This document shows, in pieces, positions 3,308-51,329 of a DNA stretch of 64,000 nt. Made by a program: the position numbers and the translations under genes. This stretch comes from Octopus sinensis (taxonomy: Eukaryota): contig NC_043012.1 of assembly GCF_006345805.1 (NCBI RefSeq), positions 16,926,001 through 16,990,000 on the forward strand, given 5' to 3'. Position 1 is the stretch's first letter. Every line of letters begins with the position of its first letter. The notes below the pieces were generated by a model, which did not search any database, was not told where the DNA came from, and was given only the letters and a program-made list of their open reading frames with translations.

Positions 3308-3512
3308 TACATTATTTACATTTGATGGATATTTGTCCTCATCTTGTTTGTTGTTAACACAACGTTTCGGCTGATATATCCTCCAGCCTTCATCAGGTGT
3401 CTTGGGGGAAATTTCGAACCTGGGTTCTCATTCCTAAGGCTTTTTTTCGATGTTATTATTATTATATGGCATATGGTTAGGAGCGCGGGCTACTAACTCC
3501 AAGAATCCGAGT
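3308..3512 (-). mobile_element. Penelope-like element (family P1) terminal fragment with inverted piece of the tRNA-like cassette
   Basis: Near-identical to 38860-39000 and to the reverse complement of 51095-51240, which follows a GIY-YIG remnant. Confidence 0.85.
3356..3401 (-). ncRNA. Minimal type I hammerhead ribozyme motif (intact core)
   Basis: Minus strand reads GACAC-CUGAUGA-AGGCUG(gaggauauau)CAGCC-GAAA-CG-UU/GUGUU: stem I GACAC:GUGUU, stem II GGCUG:CAGCC, palindromic ACGU stem III. Confidence 0.8.
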
Positions 3513-36267: not shown

Positions 36268-39003
36268 GCTGTTCTATCAGTATTTATGTGTTGAAAAAAT
36301 ATATCTTTCTACTTGTACCAAGTTATTAGTATTTGTGTGTGTGTTCCCCCACCTCTGCTTAACAACCAGTGTTCATTTATCTATGGCTTGGTAACTTAGC
36401 AGTTCAACAAAAAAGACTGACAGAATAAGCACCAGGCTTAAAACGTGTACTCGAGCTGATAGTTTTTTTCTTTTAACTAAACCCTTCAGGATGGTGCTCC
36501 AGCATGGCCAGAGTTCAACGATAGAACTAAATAAGTGATGGTTTTATGTAAGAATCCGTGGTTAATGTTATGCTTCTAACCTATTGCAATTAATGGAAAT
36601 GTTAAACGTTACAAGCATCAGTGTGAAATGGAAAAGATAAACAGATCTAATGACAGCCTATTTCTCTTTCCTGCTTCAAATTGCTACTTTTAATATTTAA
36701 TATTATTTTGTGCTGAAAATCTCAAAAGTTAATTAATTTAATAAGAAGTTAGTTACTTTAGTAAATCTCGCCAAATTATTAATTATTTTAATAAATTAAC
36801 TGAAACTTAAGCAGTGTTGATAGATCAACTGATATATGGACATGAAAGTGTTAAGCATTTAATTATGCTTCAGTATAATAAATACAGGCATGGCTGTGTG
36901 TTTACGAAGATTGCTTTGCAACCATGAGGTTTTGGGTTCAATCTCACTGCACGGCACCTTGGGCAAATTTCTTCTACTCTGGCTCTGGTCTGACCAATTC
37001 TTTGTGGGTGAATTTGGTATATGGAAACAGTTTTTGTCTACCATCATCCTTACATCATCATCTGGATGGTTTGATCAGAGCTGGCAAACAGGAGAGCTGC
37101 ACTGGGCTCCAGCCTGATTTGGCATGGTTTCTACAGCTGGAAGCCCTTCCTAATGACCACCACTTTGCAGAATGTGCTGGTGGCTCTCATGCGGCACTGG
37201 CATGAATGTTTTTTTACGTGGCACCAGCACAAAACTCTTGCACACCAATCCTCTTCATCAAGCAGGACCAGCCTTAACACTTCTGCTTTGCCATTGGTGC
37301 ACTTGGATTATTTCCCTTTGCTTATCTTGTTTCATTCATGGGACTGCTGCCATGCTGGAGCACCATCTGGTTTTGATTGTATTATTCCTTTCTTTTTTCA
37401 TTTTCTTCCTATTGTTCTTTGTTTTTCTTTCCTGTCTTCTTTCCTCCCTTCCTGCATTTTTTTTTGTTTCTCTTGTCCTTCATCTTTCATATTCTGAGTT
37501 TTCTATTTACCTATGCCTATCCATCTCTCTTCCTTTCTTTCTCTTTTTCTTCTCTCATCCTTCCTGTTTCCTCTTTTTTCTATCTCTTTTATGTTGTCCT
37601 ATTTAAAAAAATGTCCTATAAAAAAATAACAAAAAAAAGCAACAAAAATCAGATCAAAATAGTGATCCAGAGTACAAGGTAATTAGATAAACTAACAAAT
37701 CAATTTAATAATTATTTCAAATTGTGGCACAAGGCCAGCAATTTTGATGGGTGAGGACAAAGTGGACCTTGGTGGAATTTGAACTCAGAATGGAGTGACA
37801 GGTGAAATACTGCTAAGCACTTTGTCCAGCGTGCTAACGACTCTGCCAGCTCACTGCCTTACAATCCCTTATAATATAATATAATTGGATGGTTTAAAAC
37901 ATTGAATCGATGTGGGGGTCCAATTGAGTAAAACAGGAATCAGTGGGGCCTCATAGGGAAAAAAGGGTTGAGAAACACTGGTCTAATGTCTTGTGAATGA
38001 AGTCTAGAAGTTGGAAACTGTATGGAAGCCCATCTTATATGTCTGTTAGTTAATGCTTATGTATATATGTGGGTTGTAGGTTTGAAAGGTTGTTTCTGTG
38101 TTGGAATTGACACTGCTTGGGCAGTTGTGATACCTGTTCATGTTGCTGTAAATAAAATGCCCCATGCAAAAGTTTGCATATGGTGTGTGAAACCTCTGGG
38201 GTCAAGAAGGGCTCTACTTGAAGAAACAAACAAGGGTTTGATGTCAAGAAGGGCTCTGTCTGTGTCCAACTGATGCCAGCATAGAAAAAGCAGACATAAA
38301 GATGAAGCACAACTTGTTTTACTAAACCTCTCCGAAAACTTGATTATTTTCAAAATTAACTGGAACGTATGAGCAAATGTATTTCATCATCATTATCATC
38401 ATCAGCATCACCCCATCATCCCCACCACCATCACCACCATCATCGTCATCACCACCACCACCACCACCCTCATCATCATCATCATCTGGTATGGATTTGA
38501 TGGCTTGACAGGATCCAGCATGCTGCTGGGCTGCATTGAGCTCAAATGTCAGCTTTAGTATGGTCCCTGCATCTCAAATGCCCTTCCTAACACCAACCAT
38601 TTTACAATATGTATTAGGTGCTTTTTATGTGCCGCCAGCACTAGTGAGGTCACCAAGCAACCTGCAAGACGGGAAGAGAACAAAAAAATGAAAACAGCCC
38701 TCTTGATCAAGTGTGTGTGTGTGTGTCTGGCAGCAGGGTTGAGATGACTTTATGCCAGGTGTCGAGAGACTGAAGTATGATAGAAGGACAAGCACAGAAT
38801 ATAGATATATTTGTAAAACATTTAACACACTCTTGTATATCTAAGAGATGAGGAATTATTTACATTATTTACATTCGACAGATATTTGTCCTCATCTTGT
38901 TTGTTGTTAACACAACGTCTCGGCTGATATACCCTCCAGCCTTCTTCAGGTGTCTTGGGAAAATTTCAAACCTGGGTTCTCATTCCTGATTTATTTTTCA
39001 ATA

Positions 39004-39044
<41 letters not shown>

Positions 39045-39122
39045 GTTGTTGTTCAGATCACTGCTTGGAATCAAACTTGGAATCTTGGGGTTAGTAGCCC
39101 GCGCTCTTAACCACTACACCAC

Positions 39123-39196
39123 GGGCATATGGCGTAATGGTTAAGAGTGATGCTACTAACCCCAAGATATTGAGTTTGATTCCAAGTAGTGACCTG
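39123..39196 (+). promoter_or_regulatory. tRNA-like Pol III A/B-box cassette inside the P1 element
   Basis: TGGCGTAATGGTTA (A box), anticodon-like loop CTACTAA, GAGTTTGATTCC (B box; GGTTCAATTCC in the 50975 copy). Confidence 0.6.
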
Positions 39197-39274
39197 ATCA
39201 ATAACAATAAAAATGATAATAATAATATCGAAAAACACCTTATGAATGAGAACCCAGGTTCGAAATTTCCCCAA

Positions 39275-39320
39275 GACACCTGATGAAGGCTGGAGAGTAT
39301 ATCAGCCGAAACATTGTGTT
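39275..39320 (+). ncRNA. Minimal type I hammerhead ribozyme motif
   Basis: GACAC-CUGAUGA-AGGCUG...CAGCC-GAAA-CA-UU/GUGUU; stem III CpG decayed to CA. Confidence 0.7.
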
Positions 39321-39566
39321 AACTACAAACAAGATGAGGACAAATATCCATCGAATGTAAATAATGTATTTAACACACTTTCTGGTGTTGCTTTATAGCA
39401 ATTTCTCACTACTTATACTCTCTTTTTCTTGCACACTCCACCCCCTCTGTTTCCCTTTAGTCTTTCTCTCATGCCTCTGCTCTCTCTTTCTCTCTCTGAC
39501 ACTTTCTCACTTTTTCCATCTCCATCCTGACAACCCTATTTTTTCCTCTCTTCTCTATCATTACAG

Positions 39567-48994: not shown

Positions 48995-49060
<66 letters not shown>

Positions 49061-49147
49061 ATATATATACATATGTGTATATATATATGTGTATATATAT
49101 GTGCATATATATATATGTGTGTATATATATGTGCATATATATGTTTG

Positions 49148-49181
<34 letters not shown>

Positions 49182-49327
49182 TAAATATAAGTATGTGTTT
49201 GTGTTTCTTTGAATTGTCATCACATAATAATTGTAAACGAGTAATATATGTGTATATATATGTGTGTATATATGTGGGTGTGTATGTATATGTGTGTGTG
49301 TGTATATATGTATGTGTTTGTGTATAT

Positions 49328-49399
<72 letters not shown>

Positions 49400-49486
49400 A
49401 TATATATACATATGTGTATATATATATGTGTATATATATGTGCATATATATATATGTGTGTATATATATGTGCATATATATGTTTG

Positions 49487-49520
<34 letters not shown>

Positions 49521-49659
49521 TATAAATATAAGTATGTGTTTGTGTTTCTTTGAATTGTCATCACATAATAATTGTAAACGAGTAATATATGTGTATATAT
49601 ATGTGTGTATATATGTGGGTGTGTATGTATATGTGTGTGTGTGTATATATGTATGTGTT

Positions 49660-49697
<38 letters not shown>

Positions 49698-49700
49698 TAT
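48595..49700. repeat. (TA)n/(TG)n microsatellite region with a family C fragment (48820-48985, minus) and a ~340 bp tandem duplication
   Basis: Unique anchor aaatataagtatgtgtttgtgtttctttgaattgtc at 49183 and 49524. Confidence 0.9.
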
Positions 49701-50482
49701 AAGTATACATGTGTTTGTGTCTCTTTCAATTGGCAACACATGATAATTGTAAATGAGTTCCTCCATCATACAAATGGTGTTTGTTTGTTTCCATTCTTCT
49801 GTATTAACATGTCCAGCCAAGGAGGAATAATATCTTGCTTGCAAACACGAGAGGGGAGGGGCCTTTCCTGTCGCTAACCCTCACTCTCTCCAACATAGTT
49901 TGCACCAACAAATTCCCTCCAACCCATGCAAACACGAAAAGTTGACAGTAAAACAATAACGGTGATGATGATTAAGCAAATTAAACTTGAAACAAATTAA
50001 AATAGACAAAGAGCAAACTAAAATAACCTAGAAATTAATTAAAATAACCTCAAAACTAATTAAAATAATCTCGAAACTAATCAGAATAACCTTGGAAGAA
50101 ATTAAAATAAACTCGGAGCAAATTAAATCCTTTTCTAATTAAATAGTATCATCAAATTGACTTTATTTATTTATTGCATCATTTATTTATTATTTATATA
50201 TTTATTAAATGAGTTATAAATTACAGTTTAATCTCAACTGGCAACATTTCTTGGAAATTTATCAAAGCGTCTTTTATGGATTTATAGGAATCCTCTGTTT
50301 TGGAAATATAAAACCTCTCTGTTACTGTTGTTGTATATAGTAGCACCTTTACTATCATTTCCACTATGAAGATGACTTGCTGTAGCTTACAATTCTATAT
50401 TTAAGAGATGAGGAATTATTTGACGGATATTTGTCCTCATCTTGTTTGTTGTTAACACAACGTTTCGGCTGATACACCCTCT

Positions 50483-50930
50483 GTGAAAGGCCTCTCCGTA
50501 AAGATACAAAAGATATGCAGCCTTTATGATATTAGGATAGTATTCAAGAGTAATACAACACTTCGCAAATATCTCATTCGAGTAAAACCACCAATAGAAG
50601 AGAATATGACCAAAGACTCATGTACTCCATCCCGTGCAGTTGTACTAAGCCCAAAGGCGAAATATGCCGTTCCCTCAAAATAAGGGTAGAGGAACATCAC
50701 AAAGCTGTGATATGAGGAGACATTGATAAATTGGGTATAGCTGATCATGTATGGAAAAATGGAGACCACCTCCCCCTGTAGGATGAAGTTAAAATAATAG
50801 ACAGAGAACACCACTGGAAAATATGAAAACTAAAAGAAGCAGTGTATATGCTAGGACACAACAACCTCCTAAGCAGACCGAGTGCAGATATGAATAGCAT
50901 ATGGGAACCGGTATTAAGGAAGGCTAGGAA
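50483..50930 (+). pseudogene. Decayed Penelope RT-thumb/GIY-YIG endonuclease coding remnant
   Basis: VKGLSVKIQKIC...IRIVFKSNTTLRKYL.RVKP, then after frameshifts YSIPCSC ... GEICRSLKIRVEEHHKA ... GIADHVW ... H.P.*DEVKIIDREHHW ... KLKEA, the typical PLE endonuclease pattern, with in-frame stops. Confidence 0.88.
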
Positions 50931-51141
50931 AATATTAGATTTATAAGTCCTAAATATTAGATTTATAAGCCCACGGGCATATGGCATAGTGGGTAAGAGC
51001 ATGGGCTACTAAGCCCAAGATTCCGGGTTCAATTCCAAGCAGTTACCTGAATAATAATAATAATATAATAATAGTAATAATAATAATAACAACATTGAAA
51101 AATACCTTAGGAATGAGAAGCCAGGTTCAAAATTTCCCCAA

Positions 51142-51187
51142 GACACCTGATGAAGGCTGGAGAGTATATCATCTGAAATGTCGTGTT
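51142..51187 (+). ncRNA. Hammerhead ribozyme motif, partly decayed stem II, GUC cleavage triplet
   Basis: GACAC-CUGAUGA-AGGCUG...CAUCU-GAAA-UG-UC/GUGUU. Confidence 0.6.
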
Positions 51188-51329
51188 AACAACAAACAGG
51201 ATGAGGACATATATCTGTCAAATGTAAATAATGTAAATAATTGCTGTAGTTTGTTGGGCCACAGTCAATTGATATGCCTTGATTGCAAATTATCACAAAG
51301 ATTTTTCAAAGCTATTGAGTAGTTAAATG

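Follow-up and report, generated by a model that had tools for sequence, protein, structure and literature searches.

A tRNA-derived cassette, predicted to be an internal promoter for RNA polymerase III, in the terminal repeats of a hammerhead-bearing Penelope-like element of Octopus sinensis

A stretch of 64,000 nucleotides from Octopus sinensis (assembly GCF_006345805.1, contig NC_043012.1, positions 16,926,001 to 16,990,000, forward strand), in the following called the window, contains a Penelope-like element (PLE) that is 5'-truncated, spans 50386-51240 and is flanked by 9-bp target duplications. In the family of this element the pseudo-long terminal repeat (pLTR) has the order stop codon of the open reading frame (ORF), about 38 nt, a tRNA-derived unit with A and B box (termed cassette here), an (AAT)n stretch, the ATG of the ORF, a minimal hammerhead ribozyme and a tail. 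This feature is real and family-wide. The positions at which the copies end suggest that the cassette is a captured tRNA-type internal promoter, likely one of RNA polymerase III (Pol III), which sets the 5' end of the copied RNAs, and we regard this reading as probable. What appears to be new, judged from the literature searched, is a putative tRNA-type promoter together with a hammerhead inside an autonomous Penelope, the pairing itself being already known from short interspersed elements (SINEs) of schistosomes.

The cassette is a constant part of the element, as a preliminary description of this DNA had maintained, and a chance insertion of a SINE into one copy is ruled out by its presence after the ORF in 28 of 30 loci that were seeded with the ORF only (four of these loci are near-identical copies of a single one). 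In these 28 loci it lies 34-48 nt past the end of the ORF reference, one further locus has only its first 15 nt, and in one it is absent. Loci seeded with the cassette have the ORF 3' end upstream in just two of 30 cases; 28 of the 30 are without it nearby. No A/B-box cassette follows any of 53 foreign Penelope ORF segments within the up to 600 nt examined downstream; these segments derive from 79 related loci of other organisms, many from one source, and 12 have <200 nt downstream. ARAGORN, applied to 60 of the 79 foreign loci, returned one tRNA, which is unrelated. Both A and B box are retained across the family, as had been described. The designation tRNA-like is appropriate in so far as the cassette is tRNA-derived, but not in the sense of an actual tRNA: only two of seven acceptor stem pairs form, the best alternative register reaches ≤4/7, the Rfam tRNA score of 15.5 bits is below the gathering score of 29, and ARAGORN finds no tRNA in the 64-kb window. 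Since no cloverleaf with acceptor stem is formed, a tRNA gene was dismissed. The hammerhead is not reported by Rfam, whose whole-window scan was flooded by microsatellite matches. Among six tRNA isotypes sampled from the same genome, Ser not being one of them, the cassette is closest to tRNA-Arg(TCT) with 50 identities, and it is probably the descendant of a short SINE with a tRNA head and an (AAT)n tail, which an ancestral pLTR had captured. As an observation apart, tRNA genes occur in tight clusters and identical arrays on unplaced contigs (L390-L419), with several tRNA-Cys genes within 3 kb at L406.

The element in the window is laid out as given below, with numbering relative to the cassette (+1 = 50975; 50969-50974 = -6 to -1).

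50377..50385, no strand: left target-site duplication TTGCTGTAG; the same 9-mer recurs at 51241-51249
50386..50481, minus strand: inverted arm, the reverse complement of the pLTR 3' part (hammerhead loop II to tail) without the CUGAUGA box, from blastn of parts within the window and the part map
50482..50946, plus strand: 3' end of the Penelope ORF (465 nt, GIY-YIG endonuclease region) with stop TAA at 50944-50946, from the translation
50947..50974, plus strand: stop-to-cassette spacer, rearranged in the window copy, from the sequence (family spacer 38 nt)
50975..51049, plus strand: tRNA-derived cassette, likely Pol III type 2 promoter (predicted), with A box 50982-50992, CTACTAA 51006-51012 and B box 51026-51036
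51050..51093, plus strand: (AAT)n spacer, whose length differs greatly among copies
51094..51141, plus strand: leader (48 nt) with the in-frame ATG of the next unit at 51113-51115, from the translation of copies having the ORF 5' end
51142..51187, plus strand: minimal type I hammerhead, damaged in the window copy, with stem I GACAC/GUGUU, CUGAUGA 51147-51153 and GAAA 51175-51178
between 51182 and 51183, plus strand: predicted hammerhead cut, the architecture being as in PMC4209133
51188..51240, plus strand: pLTR 3' part as far as the first of two frequent 3' termini (putative start site of the reverse transcriptase, RT), from loose ends at the matching sites of locus L002
51241..51249, no strand: right target-site duplication TTGCTGTAG

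GIY-YIG remnant, tRNA-like unit, (AAT)n and hammerhead were all found where the preliminary description had put them. The remnant is indeed close to the cassette, but instead of "within ~50 nt" the distance is 28 nt in the rearranged window copy and 38 nt in the family. Likewise, the minimal hammerhead is present as a motif but not intact, as the 3' side of stem II reads CATCT instead of CAGCC. Stops and one frameshift disrupt the frame of the ORF remnant, which is 92.5% identical to the column yardstick, a column-wise reference made from 30 long copies. The cassette had been seen only as a 3' feature, but it forms the 5' end of the next unit just as well. GCCCAC at -6 to -1 forms a near-palindrome with GGGC at +1, and from the positions of the copy ends we infer that 50969-50974 is the transcription start zone. 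Two GCCC repeats bound the rearrangement of the spacer in the window copy, which includes a duplicated 13-nt piece of the ORF end and is compatible with template switches at -6; among the sampled loci the short spacer form was found three times and the full spacer 47 times. The 3' end of the spacer (-17 to -1) resembles an inverted cassette start (+1 to +14), forming an 11-bp imperfect hairpin that may have been left by an old head-to-head junction which became fixed in the source element.

The evidence for the promoter reading comes mainly from the 5' ends of the copies. Each arm of a copy was scored separately, because an RT was shown to extend both nicked strands from internal starts (PMC11167929). 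Sixty hammerhead-seeded loci and 700 kb of random stretches gave 104 arms: 53 stop or are not followable before the cassette, another 18 (one of them counted twice) end within it, and +4 is reached by 33. Of the latter, 17 stop between -4 and +4, eight are head-to-head junctions at the same place, which the aligner overshot, and eight continue into the ORF. Hence 25 of 33 arms stop at the cassette 5' end, compared to 1.7 expected from the truncation rate inside the cassette; counted by locus, 22 stop there versus eight reading on. Over all sampled loci of the genome, a mixed set for which the cassette had in part served as the seed, the sequence runs on into the upstream spacer at 92 cassette starts, and at another 92 it does not. 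Among these 92 non-continuing junctions 29 are palindromic and 63 have other partners, and the latter have modes at -7/-6 (n=17) and -2 (n=12), adjoining pyrimidine-purine steps. G(-6), A(-2) and G(+1) are purines that follow pyrimidines, 7-13 nt ahead of the A box. Purine ends at this distance fit Pol III initiation. The arrangement of the boxes corresponds to the type 2 promoter layout (PMC12498455).

Several ends run into same-sense element sequence or unrelated flank (L266, L290, L079, L069, L070), as is expected for the end of a template. Thirteen arms carry the ORF 5' end and reach the 5' part of the cassette; eight of these start at -8 to +8 and five are partial tandems. Two near-full-length copies, L300 and L436, extend from the cassette start through the whole ORF into the next pLTR; another repeat is inserted in L300 and dominated the first read mapping. 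The short copies resemble tRNA-derived SINEs in having an A/B-box head at the 5' end, but their 3' part is the Penelope pLTR and not a tail shared with a long interspersed element, so that they are SINE-like in behaviour yet not classed as SINEs. Short tandems are few (L079, L285, L289), and most short copies are solo or head to head.

A further hint comes from T runs. Pol III terminates at runs of at least four T (T4). On the sense strand neither the 2,487-nt ORF of the column yardstick nor the whole 2,859-nt unit contains any T4 run, whereas three codon-aware null models expect 2.9, 4.5 and 5.1 in the ORF (P 0.026, 0.005 and 0.003). Natural copies have 0-3 T4 runs each. As the 30 best protein matches in the same genome all belong to this family (89-95% identity to the yardstick), foreign Penelopes and unrelated ORFs were used as controls: the former have 306 T4 runs in 78.5 kb (3.9/kb), above the 268 of their own nulls, and the latter, of mixed quality, 5.6 per kb. 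The absence of T4 is suggestive of Pol III, not decisive.

At the other end of the copies the hammerhead does not mark the terminus. According to three RNA runs and one run of contigs, loose 3' ends pile up about 50 and 90 nt past the predicted cut, at 2253-2256 and 2296-2297 of L002 and thus 43 nt apart, which match the two RT starts and the tail of the Anolis element (PMC11167929). With a lenient pattern 58 of 60 hammerhead-seeded arms run past the cut. Both observations together argue that the inserted RNA was uncleaved. Moreover, the ribozyme is located downstream of the ATG, within the first codons of the ORF, and a cut would therefore part the ATG from the ORF. The proposal that the 3' end of the mobilised RNA is made by self-cleavage does not agree with these positions. 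In 183 copies common non-CpG variants are restricted to N7, a free core position (59/183), and loop II, so that the ribozyme looks as if under selection; at both places, however, the variants also change the protein little or not at all. In the GTTGTGTT stretch (hammerhead position 40-44) a slip of 3 nt gives about 13-16% gaps and keeps the frame, with loss of the predicted cleavage triplet, and the AATGTAAAT repeat after the ribozyme varies by 9-nt steps. Judged from the sequence, the hammerhead more probably serves for trimming or as an off switch than for making the mobile RNA's 3' end.

The following course of events is probable. Pol III would start at G(-6) or A(-2) and run via (AAT)n, ATG and hammerhead into the ORF, where it would meet no T4 terminator. 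The RT-endonuclease would nick both target strands and begin the complementary DNA (cDNA) at an internal site of the RNA, some 50 or 90 nt downstream of the ribozyme; for the Anolis element an internal RT start in vitro and a dispensable ribozyme have been described (PMC11167929). At the 5' end of the RNA the cDNA would halt, which would lead to SINE-like insertions of about 300 nt and occasionally to full pLTR-ORF-pLTR copies, with head-to-head joints being frequent via the GCCC-AC-GGGC near-palindrome at the RNA end. The promoter, being internal, would be retained in every complete short copy, and the hammerhead would cut only as a dimer, separating ATG and ORF. The idea of a Pol III-driven, Penelope-mobilised SINE-like RNA, as proposed before, is favoured by the 5'-end pile-up, but not its self-cleaved 3' end. 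A bolder version, which we put forward as a possibility rather than an expectation, is that Pol III drives the whole 2.9-kb autonomous unit with a T4-purged ORF, that its RNA, uncapped or ribozyme-cut and circularised, is translated via the (AAT)n leader, and that the same promoter yields the first Penelope-mobilised tRNA-headed SINE-like elements.

Several points weigh against a Pol III promoter that sets the 5' ends. Most of the ends at -7 are short inverted relics and hence not independent support. Read-through of the cassette from upstream, which was found in five of 13 copies with the ORF 5' end and in eight of 33 arms, indicates that other or longer RNAs are copied too. The stop zone coincides with a hairpin (-11.5 kcal/mol), and with 29 of 92 junctions being palindromic, fold-back at this hairpin could produce part of the 5'-end pile-up. 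The T stem is imperfect, and the B-box position is conserved no better than its surroundings among dead copies. The T4 absence is less marked under Markov nulls (P 0.06-0.30), TTT is generally avoided in the family, and two cassette-less foreign ORFs are T4-poor as well (one in 719 aa, two in about 900 aa). In three unstranded RNA runs of a related species molecule ends accumulate neither at the cassette nor at the ribozyme cut; the read depth rises about 2.5-fold at the cassette 5' edge, a step that mirrors embedded genomic copies and not a discrete RNA. Translation of an uncapped Pol III RNA is not accounted for. Finally, no intact full ORF is among the 59 best protein matches listed, and the family may therefore be extinct in this genome.

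Other explanations were weighed as well. The cassette might be an inert captured SINE, transcription being due to Pol II or read-through, and the pile-up would then arise by fold-back at the near-palindrome or by cDNA annealing. The ends coincide with the hairpin and its loop, the palindromic junctions have a constant centre, and the only Penelope promoter studied is TATA-less, internal and LINE-like (PMC2377424). We nevertheless consider this explanation unlikely. The 63 non-palindromic junctions join other partners, among them same-sense jumps and unrelated flanks. About three quarters of the arms stop at the cassette, whereas no comparable pile-up was seen by eye at the stem II hairpin, which is stronger, or at the TTCGAA/GAAATTTC palindromes. 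The lack of T4 is left unexplained, and on a long template the cDNA end should moreover remain paired with RNA. Pyrimidine-purine starts suit both Pol II and Pol III, and the RNA could also start here by Pol II from a promoter that overlaps the tRNA-like sequence by chance. Such a start would yield a capped, translatable mRNA, and Penelope of D. virilis uses an internal Pol II-type promoter (PMC2377424). This is still less plausible, because the A and B boxes are spaced as in a tRNA and the A box follows the ends by 9-13 nt, because T4 is absent over 2.8 kb, and because such a cassette is missing from all other sampled Penelopes.

Two further readings have little probability left. If the tRNA-like unit was a processing signal, as the preliminary description had offered as an alternative, RNase P would cut a longer RNA at +1, in the manner of mascRNA. 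Some ends are at or beside +1, but most are at -7/-6 and -2, and with an acceptor stem of 2/7, no register >4/7 and no cloverleaf fold such processing is very improbable. The least credible reading is the original one of a Pol III RNA of about 210 nt that ends at the hammerhead cut and constitutes the mobile unit, although promoter followed by ribozyme is the layout of the schistosome SINEs (PMC6765202), the ribozyme core is kept apart from common variants at N7 and in loop II, and such an RNA may exist as a by-product. As the inserted species it is largely refuted by the arms that run past the cut and by 3' ends further downstream; the cut fragment would be without the putative RT start sites, and the N7 and loop variants are mild for the protein frame too.

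Regarding the family, the long copies encode one ORF with an RT (RVT_1, E 1e-9, Pfam). Pfam returned no GIY-YIG match for it, and the C-terminal region is supported by an alignment of locus L154 to the Anolis homologue P0043 (29%, E 1e-22); the family is 40% identical to P0043 and has the same order of domains. Relatives with 60-66% identity to the family are P0001-P0004. The column yardstick is a single open frame of 829 aa with YVDD. Together with pLTRs, partial tandems and inverted 5' arms, a tail, a variable target duplication and a hammerhead motif within the pLTR (core boxes, stems I and II in 183 copies), this identifies the element, on sequence grounds, as a PLE of the EN+ type (RT then GIY-YIG), which probably belongs to the Penelope/Poseidon group. 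The first in-frame ATG is located in the leader (51113), and in copies with an ORF 5' end the frame runs through the hammerhead into the ORF; the N-terminus of the intact homologue P0008 shares the stretch TPD.G..PKRCVNN, and the Anolis element is laid out alike, its cut following the start codon by 26 nt (PMC11167929). The order cassette, spacer, ATG, ribozyme, ORF follows from these three observations. Six loci in the 700 kb of random stretches, which were picked by round coordinates, correspond to about 23,000 loci in the 2.72-Gb genome (95% interval 8,600-51,000), and for two hammerhead motifs the genome contains 270 and 1,208 exact matches, versus none for reversed controls.

Several other structures were observed in the sampled loci. 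Internally deleted units consist of a pLTR, 150-450 nt of the ORF 5' end and another pLTR (L266, L274, L279, L280, L285, L287-L290, L248, L257, L259); several are joined at the cassette 5' start, and their breakpoints are concentrated at about 245-285 nt into the ORF. They may have arisen by template jumps or from small circular RNAs, or may be non-autonomous derivatives. The loci L151-L154 (contigs C9724, C9459, C8464 and C1) represent one 10-kb locus four times with 97-99.9% identity, three of them on unplaced contigs, and are either uncollapsed haplotypes or a recent duplication. At L104:6975-8150 there is an uninterrupted ORF of 391 aa, possibly a retrocopy, which may encode an acid ceramidase-type enzyme. 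In the window, upstream of the element, there is a microsatellite-rich tandem duplication of about 340 bp (49009-49400 and 49348-49760, by eye).

Three further copies in the window resemble parts of the element at 80-89% (blastn), which together with the exact genomic matches of the hammerhead motifs argues against chance. Their parts are:

38832..39120, minus strand: short copy without ORF, forming the minus arm in a head-to-head pair and extending from about +8 of the cassette to the tail
39121..39367, plus strand: short copy without ORF, plus arm, beginning at cassette -4
3308..3465, minus strand: short arm with leader, intact-looking hammerhead and pLTR 3' part
3464..3512, plus strand: cassette fragment from +5 to about +55, on the strand opposite to the ribozyme

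The pair 38832-39367 is flanked by a 12-bp duplication ATTTAACACACT at 38820 and 39368. At 3308-3512 the same order of cassette and ribozyme as in the element had been claimed in part, which is refuted: the cassette fragment is on the plus and the ribozyme on the minus strand, as in a head-to-head pair. The folding z of the hammerheads is -0.6 for the copy at 51142-51187 versus -2.4 (3355-3403) and -2.5 (39273-39325), and the expected stems form in two of the three other window copies that were folded.

Minimal hammerheads in pLTRs are known from Penelope/Poseidon elements (Cervera and de la Pena, 2014; PMC4209133) and from the Anolis element PAc (Frangieh, 2024; PMC11167929). The octopus family shares with them the single ORF with RT and C-terminal GIY-YIG, a pLTR with a minimal type I hammerhead and palindromic zero-loop stem III, an ATG ahead of the cut, a pair of 3' termini about 40 nt from each other, inverted 5' arms and partial tandems. 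It differs from these descriptions, and from the 53 foreign ORF segments, by the tRNA-derived A/B cassette, which here is fixed in the pLTR and marks the 5' ends of the copies. The combination of promoter and hammerhead is not undescribed as had been supposed, since the SINE-like elements SM-alpha and Sj-alpha of Schistosoma, which are dispersed as well as in tandem, have a Pol III promoter followed by a hammerhead (PMC6765202); no such combination is reported, in the sources covered, inside an autonomous Penelope. SM-alpha and Sj-alpha do not encode protein, and their promoter comes to lie at the 3' end of cleaved monomers, whereas the cassette here is inside the pLTR of a protein-coding Penelope and the inserts span the uncleaved ribozyme. 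In the TRIMp3 elements Cassandra, Helenus and Ajax Pol III promoters occur in the LTRs of non-autonomous elements, and it is argued that the autonomous partners must use Pol II (Kojima, 2024; PMC10886601). A promoter (predicted in the octopus family) derived from a small RNA and captured in a terminal repeat, with a proposed origin by SINE insertion, is common to both systems. The octopus family differs in that it is no LTR family and carries the cassette in the autonomous element, whereas TRIMp3 are non-autonomous and have LTRs.

Animal non-LTR retrozymes are PLE derivatives that lack autonomy (bioRxiv 10.64898/2026.07.22.740005), which like the short copies are short hammerhead units from pLTRs mobilised by PLE proteins. 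They are defined as tandem arrays, and neither a tRNA head nor a Pol III promoter is mentioned in the available part of that source, whereas solo or head-to-head arrangement prevails among the short copies in the present case. In this octopus family the head passes directly to (AAT)n and pLTR. The octopus SINEs OR1 and OR2, which are said to go back to Ohshima and Okada in 1994, reportedly have a tRNA-derived head (Arg) too. Since both are cited as CORE-SINEs (PMC4758252, PMC4824008), identity with them is unlikely, as there is no room for a CORE body here; this distinction is one by description. A literature search by title and abstract, which did not extend to Repbase, Dfam and SINEBase, found no report of a tRNA-type cassette in an autonomous Penelope. 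The available parts of the cephalopod repeat surveys PMC13282606, PMC8967140 and PMC8557442 do not mention the architecture, and motif searches in two supplements gave no match, though these files apparently do not contain the sequence library of the family.

The finding touches on the questions how Penelope elements are transcribed, for which one promoter has been mapped so far, and what their hammerhead does, and with thousands of copies whose 5' ends mark a start site the question becomes directly testable. The cassette, as a predicted Pol III promoter, likely serves the short SINE-like copies and possibly the full protein-coding element as well. If Pol III makes the long RNA, this would contradict the assumption that autonomous retrotransposons need Pol II (PMC10886601) and would show the birth of a SINE inside its own partner. 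In the weaker case, tRNA-headed SINE-like mobilisation would be extended to Penelope proteins, and an abundant repeat that annotation tools would divide between SINE and PLE would be explained.
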